This document shows positions 5,419 to 43,065 of a stretch of DNA of 64,000 nucleotides, piece by piece (within the stretch, counting starts at the first letter, position 1; every line of letters begins with the position of its first letter). The stretch lies in NCBI RefSeq assembly GCF_029227855.1, contig NZ_CP074356.1. One strand, written 5' to 3'. Made by a program: the position numbers and the translations under genes. The stretch comes from Escherichia coli (lineage in GTDB: Bacteria > Pseudomonadota > Gammaproteobacteria > Enterobacterales > Enterobacteriaceae). A model generated the notes under the pieces. The model did no database searches and was not told the DNA's origin. It saw nothing but the letters and a program-made list of their open reading frames with translations.

Positions 5419-5735
5419 AAAATTCCCCTATCCAACTTTGGCACATCTATTGCTTTGTTATACAAGGCAAAGCTTGAACCAGCATCAGTACAACCCGGTT
5501 GCACCACAGCAATCCACGGGTAGCACCAAAAGAGTGCATTTTAAGAATTTTGCTTCGGAATGGTGCGGCGCATCTCGCAAAAACAAACAATAAAACAGCA
5601 ATATCTTTACATTTAACCAAACTAAATGTTACCTAACAGGCACAACACTGCACAATAAAGTTGCAGACGATAACAACACAAACACTCACAACAGGTATCC
5701 ATGCGTTCTTAACGCAGAAGATAAAGGAGTTGGAT

Positions 5736-10011: not shown

Positions 10012-10036
10012 CGCCGGATGACATCACGCCATCCGG
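10012..10036. terminator. Hairpin between convergent rihA and ybeL (REP-like, possibly bidirectional terminator)
   Basis: gccggatg / catccggc 8-bp stem with 9-nt loop in the 44-bp gap. Confidence 0.45.
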
Positions 10037-10050
10037 CACCACTCATTTCA

Positions 10051-23915: not shown

Positions 23916-24174
23916 TTGCATACCTCAATGGCCCAATTTACACTGGGTCATTACTCATAATACCTGCTAATGCTTTACATCTCCTTCGCGTTTGTATATT
24001 TTCTTTATCACTTGCAGAAATGCGATGCTACGCCTTGCTCCGTAACTCACCCCATTGATTAACTTATTGAAATAGTTGATTATGGTGAGCAAAAGCGTTC
24101 CGTTCCAATTAGACATAAGATTATTGTAATTTTTTTAAATATTATTTTTCCATGAATAAAATTGGAGTAAGTGC

Positions 24175-25128
24175 GTGGATAGTAATAATCAAATTGAAAC
24201 CTGTTTAAGCAGAAAGTCGTCAGAAGGTAAACCACAAATATTTACAACCTTACGAAATATTGATCTTAACCTTCTGACTATTTTTGAAGCTGTATATGTA
24301 CATAAAGGGATCGTTAATGCAGCGAAAGTGCTTAATCTGACACCCTCGGCAATCAGTCAGTCTATTCAGAAACTGCGCGTTATATTCCCTGACCCATTGT
24401 TTATTCGCAAAGGCCAGGGTGTCACTCCTACCGCATTTGCGATGCATCTACATGAGTATATCAGTCAGGGCCTTGAGTCCATTCTTGGCGCGCTGGATAT
24501 CGAAGGAAGCTATGATAAGCAACGAACGATAACTATTGCGACCACCCCCTCGGTCGGAGCCCTGGTCCTTCCTGTCATCTATCGGGCGATTAAATCTCAC
24601 TATCCGCAGCTTTTACTGCGCAACCCCCCCATCAGCGACGCGGAAAACCAACTCAGTCAGTTTCAAACCGATCTCATCATCGATAACATGTTTTGCACCA
24701 ATCGTACGGTGCAACATCATGTTCTGTTCACCGACAATATGGTGTTAATTTTCCGCGAGGGAAATCCACTACTCTCTTTAGAAGATGACAGGGAGACTAT
24801 CGACAACGCTGCGCATATACTCCTGTTACCGGAAGGGCAAAATTTCAGCGGTCTGCGGCAGAGAGTTCAAGAGATGTTTCCGGACCGGCAAATCAGTTTC
24901 ACCAGCTACAACATTTTGACAATCGCTGCACTGGTTGCCAACAGTGACATGTTAGCGATTATTCCCAGCCGTTTTTATAACCTGTTTAGCCGTTGCTGGC
25001 CGCTGGAAAAACTGCCTTTTCCGTCCTTAAATGATGAGCAAATAGATTTCTCTATCCACTACAACAAATTCAGCCTGCGTGATCCCATCCTGCACGGGGT
25101 AATAGATGTTATCCGTAATGCATTTTGA
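24175..25128 (+). CDS. ybeF: LysR-family transcriptional regulator YbeF
   Basis: 317 aa; N-terminal LysR HTH; GTG start; AT-rich gene with AT-rich flanks. Confidence 0.88.
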   Translation: MDSNNQIETCLSRKSSEGKPQIFTTLRNIDLNLLTIFEAVYVHKGIVNAAKVLNLTPSAISQSIQKLRVIFPDPLFIRKGQGVTPTAFAMHLHEYISQGLESILGALDIEGSYDKQRTITIATTPSVGALVLPVIYRAIKSHYPQLLLRNPPISDAENQLSQFQTDLIIDNMFCTNRTVQHHVLFTDNMVLIFREGNPLLSLEDDRETIDNAAHILLLPEGQNFSGLRQRVQEMFPDRQISFTSYNILTIAALVANSDMLAIIPSRFYNLFSRCWPLEKLPFPSLNDEQIDFSIHYNKFSLRDPILHGVIDVIRNAF

Positions 25129-25336
25129 AAAAGTATTGTTACAGCCAGATCACAGCGAAGAACGAAAAAATGGCACAATCCAACAACAATTTTACATTTT
25201 CGCGACCGCTTTGGCTGCTTTCAGGTCCGTTTCAATGATATACTGCCAGTCGTTAATTCAAAAATAGTTGATAATTACAACAATCTATTGAATTGAAACG
25301 CTTTCCTTCGTAATTCGCAACTGGAACACGCACGCT

Positions 25337-26302
25337 ATGAGTAAACCCATTGTGATGGAACGCGGTGTTAAATACCGCGATGCCGATAAGATGGCCCTTA
25401 TCCCGGTTAAAAACGTGGCAACAGAGCGCGAAGCCCTGCTGCGCAAGCCGGAATGGATGAAAATCAAGCTTCCAGCGGACTCTACACGTATCCAGGGCAT
25501 CAAAGCGGCAATGCGCAAAAATGGCCTGCATTCTGTCTGCGAGGAAGCCTCCTGCCCTAACCTGGCGGAATGCTTCAACCACGGCACAGCAACGTTTATG
25601 ATCCTCGGCGCTATTTGTACCCGCCGTTGTCCGTTCTGTGACGTTGCCCACGGTCGCCCGGTAGCTCCGGATGCCAATGAACCAGTGAAACTGGCGCAGA
25701 CCATTGCCGATATGGCGCTGCGTTATGTGGTTATCACCTCCGTTGACCGTGATGACCTGCGCGATGGCGGTGCCCAGCACTTTGCGGATTGCATTACTGC
25801 CATTCGGGAAAAAAGCCCGCAAATCAAAATTGAAACTCTGGTGCCGGATTTCCGCGGTCGTATGGATCGTGCTCTGGATATTCTAACCGCCACACCACCA
25901 GATGTGTTCAACCATAACCTGGAAAACGTACCGCGTATTTACCGTCAGGTACGGCCTGGTGCAGATTACAACTGGTCGCTGAAGCTGCTGGAACGCTTTA
26001 AAGAAGCGCATCCGGAAATCCCGACCAAGTCTGGTCTGATGGTGGGTCTGGGTGAAACCAATGAAGAAATTATTGAGGTAATGCGCGACCTGCGCCGTCA
26101 TGGTGTGACGATGTTAACGCTGGGGCAATATTTGCAGCCAAGCCGCCATCACCTGCCGGTTCAACGTTACGTTAGCCCGGATGAGTTCGACGAAATGAAA
26201 GCCGAAGCGCTGGCGATGGGCTTTACCCATGCTGCATGCGGTCCGTTTGTCCGCTCGTCTTACCACGCCGATTTGCAGGCGAAAGGGATGGAAGTTAAGT
26301 AA
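25337..26302 (+). CDS. lipA: Lipoyl synthase LipA
   Basis: 321 aa; radical-SAM CxxxCxxC (CTRRCPFC) plus N-terminal auxiliary-cluster cysteines. Confidence 0.96.
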
Positions 26303-26332
26303 TCCTGTAATAATTACTTACATCTGTCTGAT

Positions 26333-26363
26333 AAAAAACCCGCTTTTTGAAGCGGGTTTTTTT
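26333..26363. terminator. Bidirectional intrinsic terminator between convergent lipA and tatE
   Basis: aaaaaacccgct-ttttga-agcgggtttttt, symmetric A/T tracts. Confidence 0.8.
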
Positions 26364-26403
26364 GTATCGAACAAGATATTGAGGGAGCGTCCTGCTCGCC
26401 ACG

Positions 26404-26607
26404 TCACTCTTTATGAGAGAGCTTTTCAGCCTGAAGATCAACGTCTGCGCCTTTTTTCGCCGCAGCATCGTCATCATTCATCGCCTTCTTGAACCCTTTA
26501 ATGGCCGCTCCAAGGTCTCCGCCCAGCGTACGTAACTTCTTAGTCCCAAACAGCAGAACGACCAGCGCCGCAACTACCAGCAGTTTGGTAATACTAATCT
26601 CACCCAT
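26404..26607 (-). CDS. tatE: Twin-arginine translocase subunit TatE
   Basis: 67 aa TatA/E family ([26 protein letters not shown]). Confidence 0.94.
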
Positions 26608-26735
26608 AGATACCTTCTTGACATATAACCGGCAACAGAACGCGCCTTAAAAACCAGAGAATATTAACGGTCATTCGACGCGCGCACACAATAGCAATCT
26701 GTAACAAGGTGAATCAAGCGCCGAGTAAAAAAACA

Positions 26736-27530
26736 TCATAATAATTGCGGCGGCGCAAAGCGACGGTTGTTTAAGACGGGCAGTTGCGCGCGCACCTGAC
26801 GCACACGTTCGGGCGTCACTTCCGCCATAATGAGTGCAGGCATTTCTGACGCTGCCGCAATGGTGACGCCAAAGGGATCTATAATCCGGCTTTGCCCGAT
26901 ATTTTTGTTCCCGCACTCCCCCGCCGCCACCATATAACAGGTGGTATCCAGCGCACGAGCGGCAAGCAACGTTGACCAGTGATGCTCTTTGAGCGGCCCA
27001 CGAACCCAGGCGGCAGGAAGTACCAGGATTTCAGCTCCCTGTAATGCCTGTGCCAGCGCCAGCTCTGGAAAGCGTAAGTCATAACAGGTCATCAGACCGA
27101 CCTTCATCCCTTCCACCTCCAGTAACGGAGCTATTTCATTACCAGCATCAACATGGCGTGATTCCTGAATGGCAAATGCATCATAGAGATGCAGTTTGGC
27201 ATAACGGGCGACGATGTTTCCTGCCTGTAGCGCCACCAGCATATTCCATGCGCGCCCCGGCGTTGAAGGAACATGAATCGTCAGAATTGTCGTCATCATG
27301 TTACGTTTACTTTCTCGCCGTAAACGTCCGAGGAATTCGCCTTCCAGCAGCTGTGCTGATTTAACCGATAGATCTGCATCATGATCATCACGCGCCAACA
27401 ATGCTTCCGGCAGGACAAACAGCGAAACGTCGTTTTCCGCCGCCTGCGCCATCAACGAGGCACAAATCTCAGCGTTCTTTTCCCACACAGATGTAACAGC
27501 AAACTGTCCTGCAGCAACCAGCATTGCCAC
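26736..27530 (-). CDS. ybeM: Nit-family CN-hydrolase YbeM (deaminated glutathione amidase-like), intact
   Basis: 264 aa uninterrupted ORF with conserved Cys (CYDLRFPE) and Glu/Lys of the nitrilase triad. Confidence 0.85.
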
Positions 27531-27616
27531 CTCCTGTCAGAGTCGTAAAATTCGCCAACGACGATTATTCGGCGTTACACTTATCACTCATACAAATCAA
27601 ATAGCAGGATTTTGCA

Positions 27617-28000
27617 GTGTTACAACTTCTTTTAGCAGTTTTTATTGGCGGTGGTACGGGAAGCGTGGCGAGATGGCTGTTAAGTATGCGATTTAACCCG
27701 CTGCATCAGGCGATTCCGTTGGGGACGCTGGCTGCAAACCTGATTGGGGCATTCATCATAGGAATGGGATTCGCCTGGTTTAGCAGGATGACGAACATTG
27801 ATCCAGTGTGGAAAGTATTAATCACCACCGGATTTTGTGGCGGTCTAACAACCTTCTCAACATTTTCGGCAGAAGTAGTGTTTTTGTTACAAGAGGGCCG
27901 CTTAGGCTGGGCGTTACTGAACGTTTTCGTCAACCTTTTGGGGTCTTTTGCCATGACCGCACTGGCTTTCTGGCTGTTTTCCGCCTCAACCGCACACTAA
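27617..28000 (+). CDS. crcB: Fluoride channel CrcB/FluC
   Basis: 127 aa, four TM helices, GTG start. Confidence 0.92.
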
Positions 28001-28005
28001 AGACC

Positions 28006-28036
28006 AAAAAAAACCCGCTGATTAAGCGGGTTTTGA
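28006..28036. terminator. Bidirectional intrinsic terminator between crcB and cspE
   Basis: aaaaaaacccgct-gatta-agcgggtttt. Confidence 0.8.
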
Positions 28037-28053
28037 ATTCTTGCTGACGTATC

Positions 28054-28263
28054 TTACAGAGCGATTACGTTTGCAGCAGAAGGGCCTTTGGCACCGTTAG
28101 TGATTTCGAACTCTACGCGCTGACCTTCAGCAAGAGTTTTAAAACCATTAGTCTGGATTGCAGAGAAGTGTACAAACACGTCTTTGCTGCCGTCTTCCGG
28201 AGTAATGAAACCGAATCCTTTGGACTCATTAAACCACTTAACGTTACCTTTAATCTTAGACAT
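28054..28263 (-). CDS. cspE: Cold-shock-domain protein CspE
   Basis: 69 aa from [20 protein letters not shown]; RNP1/RNP2 motifs. Confidence 0.95.
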
Positions 28264-28437
28264 CAAAATTACCTTTACATGAAAAATAGACACAAATGCT
28301 GTGTCGGTTACCAGTACACCAATTGTGGTACGCTTTGTCCAGTGCAACTTTACTAAAAAGTGATAAAAGTCGCGTTATTTTTGATGTTAATTATTTTACC
28401 CATTGATTTTAAAGAGTTTACTAAAATTTCATTTGTC

Positions 28438-28998
28438 TCAAAACTGAAAGCGCATCCAGGCAAAGTACACATTGCCATTGTTATAGGTACCCGGAATGTA
28501 GGTCATCTGAAAAGTCACTGGACCATAACCCACAGAGGCCAATGGCAGTAGAACCGGGAGAGGGATGTAATTCCAGTTATCGCGTGCCGTTACGCCAGCG
28601 GTGAATCCCAGTCCTAAATGAAAATTTTCATCCGCCAGCGGTCGCCAGGTACTTTCCCATCCGTATCCGGCAATCGGTTCCCATTTGTTCCACGAGTCCT
28701 TAAATGCCATGGCATACAGGCCATGCCAGTTTCCTTTTTCATCCCAACGCGACTGACCAAAACCGCCACCCCACAGTCGCTCGTTATAGCGATCGGTTTT
28801 TTCTTTGTCGTAAGCGAAACGAGCATGCCAGGTGATGGCAGGAATATATAAATCATAATGTTCAGGCTGTTGCCAGGTTTGTGTAATATTTTCTCCAAAC
28901 GTTGTCATCCACTCATCTGCGTTAGCAAAAACTTTACCAACGCTGATTAACTGAATAAAAACAAAGGAAAAGATAGCGACATATTTACTCACGTTCAT
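28438..28998 (-). CDS. pagP: Lipid A palmitoyltransferase PagP
   Basis: 186 aa outer-membrane beta-barrel with signal peptide [14 protein letters not shown]. Confidence 0.93.
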
Positions 28999-29483
28999 TT
29001 GTGACCATAAAACATTTATCAAAAATCTACTACTAGCATAGCAAAGCTACAATTAACATAACCTTAATAGCCCCAACATAAAGAACAATCTGAATAGCTG
29101 CTCTATTTATTTCCGCTTGTTTAAGTTAAATATTTCCGCGCATCGATTAAAGATGATGTATCGTTTTCTGCGATGGGAATAGTCAAAAAAGAAAAACCAA
29201 GTATTTTTTGATGACAAAATGCAACCAAGGAAAAATTTCTTTATTTTTTAATTGGATACAAAAATCACCTTAACGAAGAATATAATATATATCGTCAACC
29301 CATGCTCATGGCAGATTATTTTCTGAGCACGCAACCGCAGCTAACACCATTGCTATTAACAAATTTGCATCAATCCGCCATCAATTTACACACATTATTA
29401 TGTGGTAATTGCCAAACGCTAAATATGCGTTTTGTTATCTATGTATAAAAACAGCAACTTCAATGTCTTAATGGCAGTTTTTC

Positions 29484-29497
29484 TTGATTTTAATCAG
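29484..29497 (+). promoter_or_regulatory. Candidate FNR site upstream of dcuC
   Basis: TTGAT-TTTA-ATCAG, 9/10 match to TTGAT-N4-ATCAA, about 96 bp upstream of dcuC ATG. Confidence 0.5.
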
Positions 29498-29586
29498 CAT
29501 TCACCGCCAATTTATTGGGCATATTTTTTCCTTAAGTTTTAGGAATTTTTTATTATTTACTTTGGGGCCTGGAGACAGGAAAAATT

Positions 29587-30972
29587 ATGCTGACATTCAT
29601 TGAACTCCTTATTGGGGTTGTGGTTATTGTGGGTGTGGCTCGCTACATCATTAAAGGGTATTCCGCCACTGGCGTGTTATTTGTCGGTGGCCTGTTATTG
29701 CTGATTATCAGTGCCATTATGGGGCACAAAGTGTTACCGTCCAGCCAGGCTTCAACAGGCTACAGCGCCACGGATATCGTTGAATACGTTAAAATATTGC
29801 TAATGAGCCGCGGCGGCGACCTCGGCATGATGATTATGATGCTGTGTGGCTTTGCCGCTTACATGACCCATATCGGCGCGAATGATATGGTGGTCAAGCT
29901 GGCGTCAAAACCATTGCAGTATATTAACTCCCCTTACCTGCTGATGATTGCCGCCTATTTTGTCGCCTGTCTGATGTCTCTGGCCGTCTCTTCCGCGACC
30001 GGTCTGGGTGTTTTGCTGATGGCAACCCTGTTTCCGGTGATGGTAAACGTTGGTATCAGCCGTGGTGCAGCTGCTGCTATTTGTGCCTCCCCGGCGGCGA
30101 TTATTCTCGCACCGACTTCAGGGGATGTGGTGCTGGCGGCGCAGGCTTCCGAAATGTCGCTGATTGACTTCGCCTTCAAAACGACGCTGCCTATCTCAAT
30201 TGCTGCAATTATCGGCATGGCGATCGCCCACTTCTTCTGGCAACGTTATCTGGATAAAAAAGAGCACATCTCTCATGAAATGTTAGATGTCAGTGAAATC
30301 ACCACCACTGCTCCTGCGTTTTATGCCATTTTGCCGTTCACGCCGATCATCGGAGTGCTGATTTTTGACGGCAAATGGGGTCCGCAATTACACATCATCA
30401 CTATTCTGGTGATTTGTATGCTGATTGCCTCCATTCTGGAGTTCATCCGCAGCTTTAATACCCAGAAAGTTTTCTCTGGTCTGGAAGTGGCTTATCGCGG
30501 GATGGCAGATGCGTTTGCTAACGTGGTGATGCTGCTGGTTGCCGCTGGGGTATTCGCTCAGGGGCTTAGCACCATCGGCTTTATTCAAAGTCTGATTTCT
30601 ATCGCCACCTCGTTTGGTTCGGCGAGTATCATCCTGATGCTGGTATTAGTGATCCTGACAATGCTGGCGGCAGTCACGACCGGTTCAGGCAATGCGCCGT
30701 TTTATGCGTTTGTTGAGATGATCCCGAAACTGGCGCACTCTTCCGGCATTAACCCGGCGTATTTGACTATCCCAATGCTGCAGGCGTCAAACCTCGGTCG
30801 TACCCTGTCACCCGTTTCTGGCGTAGTCGTTGCGGTTGCCGGGATGGCGAAAATCTCACCATTTGAAGTCGTAAAACGCACCTCGGTGCCGGTGCTTGTT
30901 GGTTTGGTGATTGTTATCGTTGCTACAGAGCTGATGGTGCCAGGAACGGCAGCCGCGGTCACAGGCAAGTAA
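29587..30972 (+). CDS. dcuC: Anaerobic C4-dicarboxylate transporter DcuC
   Basis: 461 aa polytopic membrane protein. Confidence 0.95.
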   Translation: MLTFIELLIGVVVIVGVARYIIKGYSATGVLFVGGLLLLIISAIMGHKVLPSSQASTGYSATDIVEYVKILLMSRGGDLGMMIMMLCGFAAYMTHIGANDMVVKLASKPLQYINSPYLLMIAAYFVACLMSLAVSSATGLGVLLMATLFPVMVNVGISRGAAAAICASPAAIILAPTSGDVVLAAQASEMSLIDFAFKTTLPISIAAIIGMAIAHFFWQRYLDKKEHISHEMLDVSEITTTAPAFYAILPFTPIIGVLIFDGKWGPQLHIITILVICMLIASILEFIRSFNTQKVFSGLEVAYRGMADAFANVVMLLVAAGVFAQGLSTIGFIQSLISIATSFGSASIILMLVLVILTMLAAVTTGSGNAPFYAFVEMIPKLAHSSGINPAYLTIPMLQASNLGRTLSPVSGVVVAVAGMAKISPFEVVKRTSVPVLVGLVIVIVATELMVPGTAAAVTGK

Positions 30973-41537: not shown

Positions 41538-42246
41538 GTGCACAGAAAACCCCCAGCTAGGCTGGGGGTTCCGGAAAGCTTTCAGCTTTGAGCCTGTTAT
41601 TAAAACCCCTTTTGATTTGTTAAAACACCTTGCGGTCTGGCAACTGCAAGTGTCAAACAAGAAATCAAAAGGGGGTCCCAATGGGGAACGAAAAGAGCTT
41701 AGCGCACACCCGATGGAACTGTAAATATCACATAGTTTTTGCGCCAAAATACCGAAGACAGGTGTTCTACAGAGAGAAGCGTAGAGCAATAGGCAGTATT
41801 TTGAGAAAGCTGTGTGAGTGGAAAAGCGTACGGATTCTGGAAGCTGAATGCTGTGCAGATCATATCCATATGCTTGTGGAGATCCCGCCTAAAATGAGCG
41901 TATCCGGGTTTATGGGATATCTGAAAGGGAAAAGCAGTCTGATGCTTTACGAGCAGTTTGGTGATTTGAAATTCAAATACAGGAACAGGGAGTTCTGGTG
42001 CAGAGGGTACTACGTCGATACAGTGGGTAAGAACACGGCGAAGATACAGGATTACACAAAGCACCAGCTTGAAGAGGATAAAATGGGAGAGCAGTTATCG
42101 ATTCCCTATCCGGGCAGCCCGTTTACGGGCCGTAAGTAACGAAGTTGGATGCAAATGTCAGATCGTGTGCGCCTGTTAGGGCGCGGCTGGTAAGAGAGCC
42201 TTATAGGCGCATTTGAAAAACCTCCGGCTATGCCGGAGGATATTTA
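41538..42246 (+). mobile_element. IS200-family insertion sequence (IS200/IS605 family), boundaries approximate
   Basis: Single Y1 HUH transposase ORF with left-end hairpin (41549..41569), 69-nt stem sequestering the tnpA RBS (41606..41674) and right-end hairpin (42221..42239); about 709 bp, no terminal inverted repeats. Confidence 0.6.
41681..42139 (+). CDS. tnpA: IS200 transposase TnpA (HUH single-strand transposase)
   Basis: 152 aa; HuH motif (DHIHMLV) and C-terminal Tyr region; aaaggggg RBS. Confidence 0.93.
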   Translation: MGNEKSLAHTRWNCKYHIVFAPKYRRQVFYREKRRAIGSILRKLCEWKSVRILEAECCADHIHMLVEIPPKMSVSGFMGYLKGKSSLMLYEQFGDLKFKYRNREFWCRGYYVDTVGKNTAKIQDYTKHQLEEDKMGEQLSIPYPGSPFTGRK

Positions 42247-42299
42247 TTTTTGGGTATGTTTATCTGCGACACTCGCAGTACCGACGACATGGAGTAAAA

Positions 42300-42770: not shown

Positions 42771-42852
42771 CTCAAATATCAACCAGATTTATCATTTTGC
42801 TCTTAAGCGCAGCATTCTAATCTGAACTGGTTATTCATCTGCGGAACCTCAT

Positions 42853-42942
42853 ATGAGCGAAGCTCTCGGTATCACTGCATTTTATATATTCATAGCCGCG
42901 ATTATTGTTGCTGCAGTGCTATACCTTGAACAACGCTGGTAG
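42853..42942 (+). CDS. Candidate 29-aa hydrophobic small ORF (MSEALGITAFYIFIAAIIVAAVLYLEQRW)
   Basis: ATG-to-TAG ORF below the 60-aa track threshold; single predicted TM helix; weak RBS; no independent support. Confidence 0.25.
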   Translation: MSEALGITAFYIFIAAIIVAAVLYLEQRW

Positions 42943-43065
42943 CGCCTGGTTTTATTTATTTTCCAGCTCAATAGCAAATTCAGATCAAATCAGCCTCGCA
43001 AATCATAGATTCATAACCAATAATGTGCTGTTATGTATACATGCAAAAACAAGGAGAGAATGCTT

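Follow-up and report, generated by a model that had tools for sequence, protein, structure and literature searches.

The gene ybeM raises a question about what Escherichia coli has kept and what one of its laboratory lineages has lost. In K-12 MG1655 the gene is annotated as a pseudogene (b4581, NC_000913.3 658031–658818), with 788 bp compared with 789 bp in the sequence analysed here. The window, by which we mean the whole stretch of 64,000 nucleotides of E. coli DNA that was analysed (contig NZ_CP074356.1), carries the same locus with an open reading frame. We asked whether this frame is truly intact, whether it represents the original state of the gene, and what the encoded protein is likely to do. 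Our reading, to which we assign a probability of about 0.9, is that the window contains an intact, wild-type ybeM encoding a 262-residue enzyme of the Nit1 branch of the nitrilase superfamily, most likely a metabolite-repair amidase, and that K-12 lost this gene through deletion of a G in codon 67.

The open reading frame lies on the minus strand and runs from a GTG at 27530 to a TGA at 26738–26736. It consists of 264 codons with no internal stop or frameshift, exactly as an earlier note on this DNA had described it (26736–27530). Translation likely begins at an ATG at 27524, two codons 3′ of the GTG, giving a protein of 262 residues. The coding sequence (27524–26736, minus strand) thus comprises 262 codons plus TGA, or 789 bp including the stop, and is annotated as deaminated glutathione amidase. 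The same ATG is the start used by RefSeq for the identical gene of strain 118UI, and also by the K-12 annotation. A ribosome-binding site, AGGAGG (27530–27535, minus strand; cctcct on the plus strand), can be read 5 nt upstream of this ATG; since it also overlaps the GTG, the latter is an unlikely start. From the start annotations and this overlap, the in-frame GTG-GCA extension (27525–27530, minus strand) is probably untranslated.

The gene order around ybeM (ybeF, lipA, tatE, ybeM, crcB, cspE, pagP, dcuC) is the standard E. coli arrangement, as in K-12 and 118UI. According to the open reading frames, ybeM (minus strand) and crcB (plus strand) diverge from an intergenic region of 86 bp (27531–27616). 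A scan for promoters and terminators gave counts no higher than those in shuffled sequence and is uninformative on ybeM; the only promoter-like site in the ybeM-crcB gap is on the plus strand (27524–27551), and shuffled sequences give as many. In strain MS15236 and others, which match the region over 1054 bp, three extra bases are present relative to the window. The lengths of both coding sequences are unchanged and the gap between them grows from 92 to 95 bp, placing the extra bases in the intergenic region.

An Rfam scan of positions 24000–30000 found no match in or beside ybeM, including the intergenic region 27531–27616, and no fluoride riboswitch upstream of crcB. The sole match above threshold in this interval is a cspA-type thermoregulator at cspE, spanning the gene with its leader and 3′ flank (28006–28364, minus strand; 119.4 bits, gathering threshold 78), as expected for a paralogue of the cold-shock proteins. 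Sub-threshold matches to "leader" families at 26230–26430, in the gap between lipA and tatE, and at about 28005–28110, beyond crcB at the 3′ end of cspE, coincide with hairpins that resemble terminators, and we discounted them as chance similarities.

The gene in this form is well represented in the public record. The exact 262-residue protein is found on at least 1000 contigs under the name deaminated glutathione amidase, and the ybeM DNA of the window is 100% identical to that of strain 118UI, isolated from urine in Mexico City, where the coding sequence is recorded as WP_001305561.1. Thus, ybeM here is a known and already annotated core gene in its majority state, and there is nothing new in the gene itself.

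Alignment of the window with the K-12 locus reveals one indel and 13 substitutions, 12 of them inside the coding sequence counted from the ATG. The indel is the lesion: a single G, present in the window at 27325 (minus strand), is missing in K-12. It occupies position 206 of the open reading frame in GTG numbering, or position 200 from the ATG, and is the second base of the Arg67 codon, which changes from CGT to C-TT. The deletion can be written as GGACGTTTAC -> GGACTTTAC and falls at NC_000913.3 658229/658230 in MG1655. The lesion is also visible in the split reading frame of K-12 and in the junction-word counts given below. The K-12 frame breaks into a 77-residue ORF, counted from the GTG, and a 187-residue ORF that resumes at Met-Met-Thr-Thr. 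Its ORF is therefore neither identical to that of the window nor intact, and the alignment together with the b4581 annotation bears out the statement in the earlier note that the K-12 MG1655 copy is a disrupted pseudogene. The window, which keeps the G and has the intact type of 55-mer over the junction, does not carry the K-12-type allele.

To determine how widely the two states are distributed, we used two junction queries, a K-12 54-mer and an intact 55-mer, for which every 28-base seed word spans the lesion site. The ybeM locus was found in 5424 of 5426 complete E. coli genomes. The K-12 word matched 860 of them, all at 99% identity or more, and the intact word matched 4564 (84%), at identities from 96% to 100%; the two states together account for every genome with the locus. 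Among 60 evenly spaced carriers of the deletion, 38 are natural isolates and 19 are K-12-type laboratory strains (3 are unclear), with the natural carriers coming from humans, poultry, pigs, river water, seawater and soil. NCTC86, the strain of Escherich, and the German stool isolate EcN_Sk both carry the deletion, and PGAP calls both genes "frameshifted". Because 860 complete genomes share it, including those of many natural isolates, the deletion is not peculiar to K-12. It is a natural lineage polymorphism present in about 16% of complete genomes rather than a laboratory artefact.

A recurrent-mutation hotspot at this position was considered and rejected: the surrounding sequence, GGAC-G-TTTAC, does not form a homopolymer run, and we found the three carrier alleles that we examined to be nearly identical, with differences of 0–2 bases. 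For the same two reasons, a single origin of the deletion appears more likely. The frameshifted alleles of K-12 and NCTC86 show just two differences, both nonsynonymous, which fits relaxed constraint after the frameshift, although the sample is very small. Two further observations concern disrupted genes in this neighbourhood. In the O166:H15 strain JNE21-003, an IS21-like element, ISEc62 (istA/istB), lies inside ybeM near its 3′ end and represents an independent inactivation. In EcN_Sk, the annotation also lists the neighbouring ybeF, encoding a LysR-family regulator, as a truncated pseudogene; the ybeF of the window (24175–25128) is intact and has both LysR domains.

The product of ybeM belongs to the carbon-nitrogen hydrolase (nitrilase) superfamily. 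It covers positions 2–255 of the 256 in the Pfam profile PF00795 (CN_hydrolase), with an E-value of 4.2e-41 and a score of 141.4 bits (gathering threshold 23.2). A match of this extent places the ORF far beyond chance. Among the more specific NCBIfam models, the protein passes NF033621 (de_GSH_amidase; 451.5 bits, cut-off 355), covering 2–260 of 260, but this model is of type "exception" and, as we understand it, modelled mainly on Escherichia sequences, in which case its agreement with YbeM is close to circular. All other nitrilase-superfamily NCBIfam models score YbeM far below their own cut-offs. These include NF043013, a second deaminated glutathione amidase model of the Yersinia type (82.7 bits, cut-off 500), and the amidohydrolase model NF007757 (61.5 bits, cut-off 249), which we take to describe the YafV type; by score, YbeM is therefore not a YafV-type omega-amidase.

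Comparison with solved structures places YbeM nearer to the Nit1 branch than to the Nit2/omega-amidase branch, by a moderate margin. The best match is the NitFhit protein of Caenorhabditis elegans (1EMS; E-value 1.7e-29, 106 bits, residues 5–255), and the second-best structure of the Nit1 type is yeast NIT2 (4H5U, 97 bits). Structures of the Nit2/omega-amidase branch score lower (2W1V, 82 bits; 1F89, 75 bits).

Residues Glu40, Lys110 and Cys147 of YbeM align, column for column, with positions 54, 127 and 169 of 1EMS, presumably the catalytic triad of the Nit-Fhit structure. Glu40 (codon GAA, 27405–27407, minus strand) is the proposed catalytic base, Lys110 (AAA, 27195–27197, minus strand) the proposed catalytic lysine, and Cys147 (TGT, 27084–27086, minus strand) the proposed nucleophile. 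Cys147 also aligns with the cysteine that is replaced by serine in 4HGD, a structure of yeast Nit2, relative to 4H5U. The catalytic Cys and Glu context mentioned in the earlier note is thus present, with the lysine in addition, and its description of the product as deaminated-glutathione amidase-like agrees with both the NF033621 score above cut-off and the RefSeq name. In K-12, these residues are parted by the frameshift: the 77-residue piece has the glutamate only, and the 187-residue piece has the lysine and cysteine only. As a result, no complete active site can arise from either fragment.

The intact frame is colinear with the Nit1-type homologues of worm and yeast over the lesion site and is present in the more diverse alleles. 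Judged from these alignments, the intact state is the ancestral as well as the majority one, and the allele described here holds no novelty, because it is K-12 and a related natural lineage that lost the gene through the G deletion. The reverse order of events, with an ancestral frameshifted form and a reversion in the present strain, is a formal possibility and nothing more. We regard it as effectively refuted by this colinearity, by the 84% share of intact genomes with their wider range of identity to the 55-mer, and by the uniformity of the 860 carriers over the junction word and of the three alleles examined. Selection among intact copies was assessed in five alleles (the window, MS15236, O157:H7 WS4202, a B-strain derivative and A0 34/86). 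In pairwise comparisons, pS ranges from 0.015 to 0.08 and pN from 0 to 0.008, with pN/pS between 0 and 0.2. These values show purifying selection on intact ybeM and support a maintained functional gene. Together with the colinearity and the intact site in 4564 of 5424 genomes, they lend support to the suggestion in the earlier note that this strain retains a functional ancestral allele. An intact frame could still fail to be expressed in this strain, or yield an inactive product, if the promoter were lost or a missense change were disabling, and the gene would then have no more function than it has in K-12. We found no convincing sigma-70 consensus upstream of ybeM on the minus strand, but the consensus scan is insensitive. 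The sole protein difference from the O157 and B allele is at residue 124, which is histidine here and arginine in the O157, B and K-12-lineage alleles, but this position varies among Nit homologues in our alignment. Considering also the low pN/pS of intact alleles, the presence of this allele on at least 1000 contigs, and the changes in ybeM expression reported in CFT073 (PMC5320621), we think it very unlikely that the gene is silent or inactive.

A different doubt concerns the substrate. The enzyme might be intact and active with a physiological substrate other than deaminated glutathione, acting as an omega-amidase or as a hydrolase of some other small amide, its name having been over-transferred from eukaryotic Nit1. 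The scores of the Nit1-type and Nit2-type structures are only moderately apart, the one specific model that YbeM passes is the apparently Escherichia-built "exception", and the Yersinia-type model is missed by a wide gap, all of which leave some room for this view. Against it, E. coli has a separate protein of the YafV type, cited as a 2-oxoglutaramate amidase, on whose model YbeM falls well below the cut-off; the closest relatives of YbeM are on the Nit1 branch; and the naming agrees across sources. On balance, we consider such a misassignment improbable and favor the assignment of YbeM as an amidase of deaminated glutathione.

The substrate and chemical steps that we propose for YbeM are drawn from annotation, family membership and the literature. 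Transaminases occasionally deaminate glutathione by mistake, generating deaminated glutathione (dGSH), which YbeM would cleave into 2-oxoglutarate and cysteinylglycine. Following the usual chemistry of the superfamily, a thioester acyl-enzyme would arise when Cys147 attacks the amide carbonyl, with Glu40 as the putative general base and Lys110 probably stabilising the tetrahedral intermediate. The E. coli protein was reportedly assayed directly by Peracchi et al. in 2017 (PNAS). The corresponding reaction of Nit1, from dGSH to 2-oxoglutarate and Cys-Gly, is described in PMC10452834, and the work on Nit1 and on the yeast enzyme is summarised in PMC5714238. YbeM has been given as the equivalent of NIT1, and YafV as that of NIT2 (PMC8788347).

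The ybeM locus may have a further connection, to nitric oxide. An 11-mer, ATGATGCATTT, is located inside the gene (27184–27174, minus strand; 341–351 nt from the ATG) and differs by one mismatch from the 11-bp half-site of NsrR. A search of the window for this half-site returned 4 one-mismatch matches, where 7.9 are expected, and the intragenic match is thus not significant by sequence alone. Its location coincides with NsrR ChIP peaks reported inside ybeM, 345 bp from the start, first in K-12 and later in CFT073; in a NO-related experiment of the CFT073 study, ybeM was down-regulated 0.30-fold (PMC5320621). In UTI89, over-expression of out-of-frame fragments of ybeM led to filamentation and that of the full ORF did not, an effect that the authors considered unrelated to the natural function of ybeM (PMC6206680).

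The window differs from K-12 at several other places outside ybeM. Between rna and rnk, the window has about 708 bp (41540–42248) that are absent from K-12 and contain an ORF (41681–42139, plus strand) for an IS200-like Y1 transposase (PF01797, E-value 1e-36); this segment is an IS200-type insertion. At the junction between rihA and ybeL (10013–10050), about 8 kb of K-12 sequence (675501–683471) are missing, and with them ybeQ, ybeR, djlB, ybeT, ybeU, djlC and hscC. A stretch of 277 bp (42771–43048) takes the place of about 1.6 kb in K-12 (641884–643496; ybdR and yldA), and ybdR is consequently absent from this strain. The K-12 element IS5D (687851–689045), in the gap between gltI and lnt, is absent as well, the site being uninterrupted in the window (5632–5636).

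The distribution of the two alleles has practical consequences. K-12 is a natural ybeM null, a state that it shares with about 16% of the complete E. coli genomes, and phenotypes of metabolite repair or glutathione damage obtained in K-12 may misrepresent the species. Strains like the present one, B/BL21 or O157 are the right background for a study of the enzyme. A large natural lineage survives without an intact ybeM, which indicates that any contribution of the gene to fitness is conditional. A more speculative view would make the frameshift an old marker, of single origin, for a successful lineage in which the supposedly universal repair enzyme has become dispensable or its loss has been favored, with K-12 as a natural knockout; in addition, the intragenic NsrR-like half-site, located where the ChIP peak is reported, could link ybeM to stress from nitric oxide. 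We hold these two ideas jointly and tentatively, and regard them as doubtful. If the part concerning the lineage marker is true, K-12 could serve as a natural knockout for studies of dGSH damage.

Among known systems, YbeM of 118UI (WP_001305561.1) is the same as that of the window in protein, length and neighbourhood from lipA to dcuC, with no difference between the two. MG1655 b4581 shares the locus and its neighbours, and its DNA is about 98.5% identical (12 substitutions in the 789-bp coding sequence); apart from the missing G, it has the changes V33A and V37A, which are absent from the frameshifted allele of NCTC86. Members of the Nit2/omega-amidase branch (mouse Nit2, 2W1V; yeast Nit3, 1F89; and the E. 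coli YafV type, NF007757) share the family and the aligned catalytic residues with YbeM, but their assigned substrate, 2-oxoglutaramate, is unlike that assigned to YbeM. The eukaryotic Nit1 branch (1EMS; 4H5U/4HGD) shares the superfamily and the Glu-Lys-Cys columns, and is assigned the same reaction. Compared with these eukaryotic proteins, YbeM is shorter, with several loop insertions missing and no fusion to Fhit.
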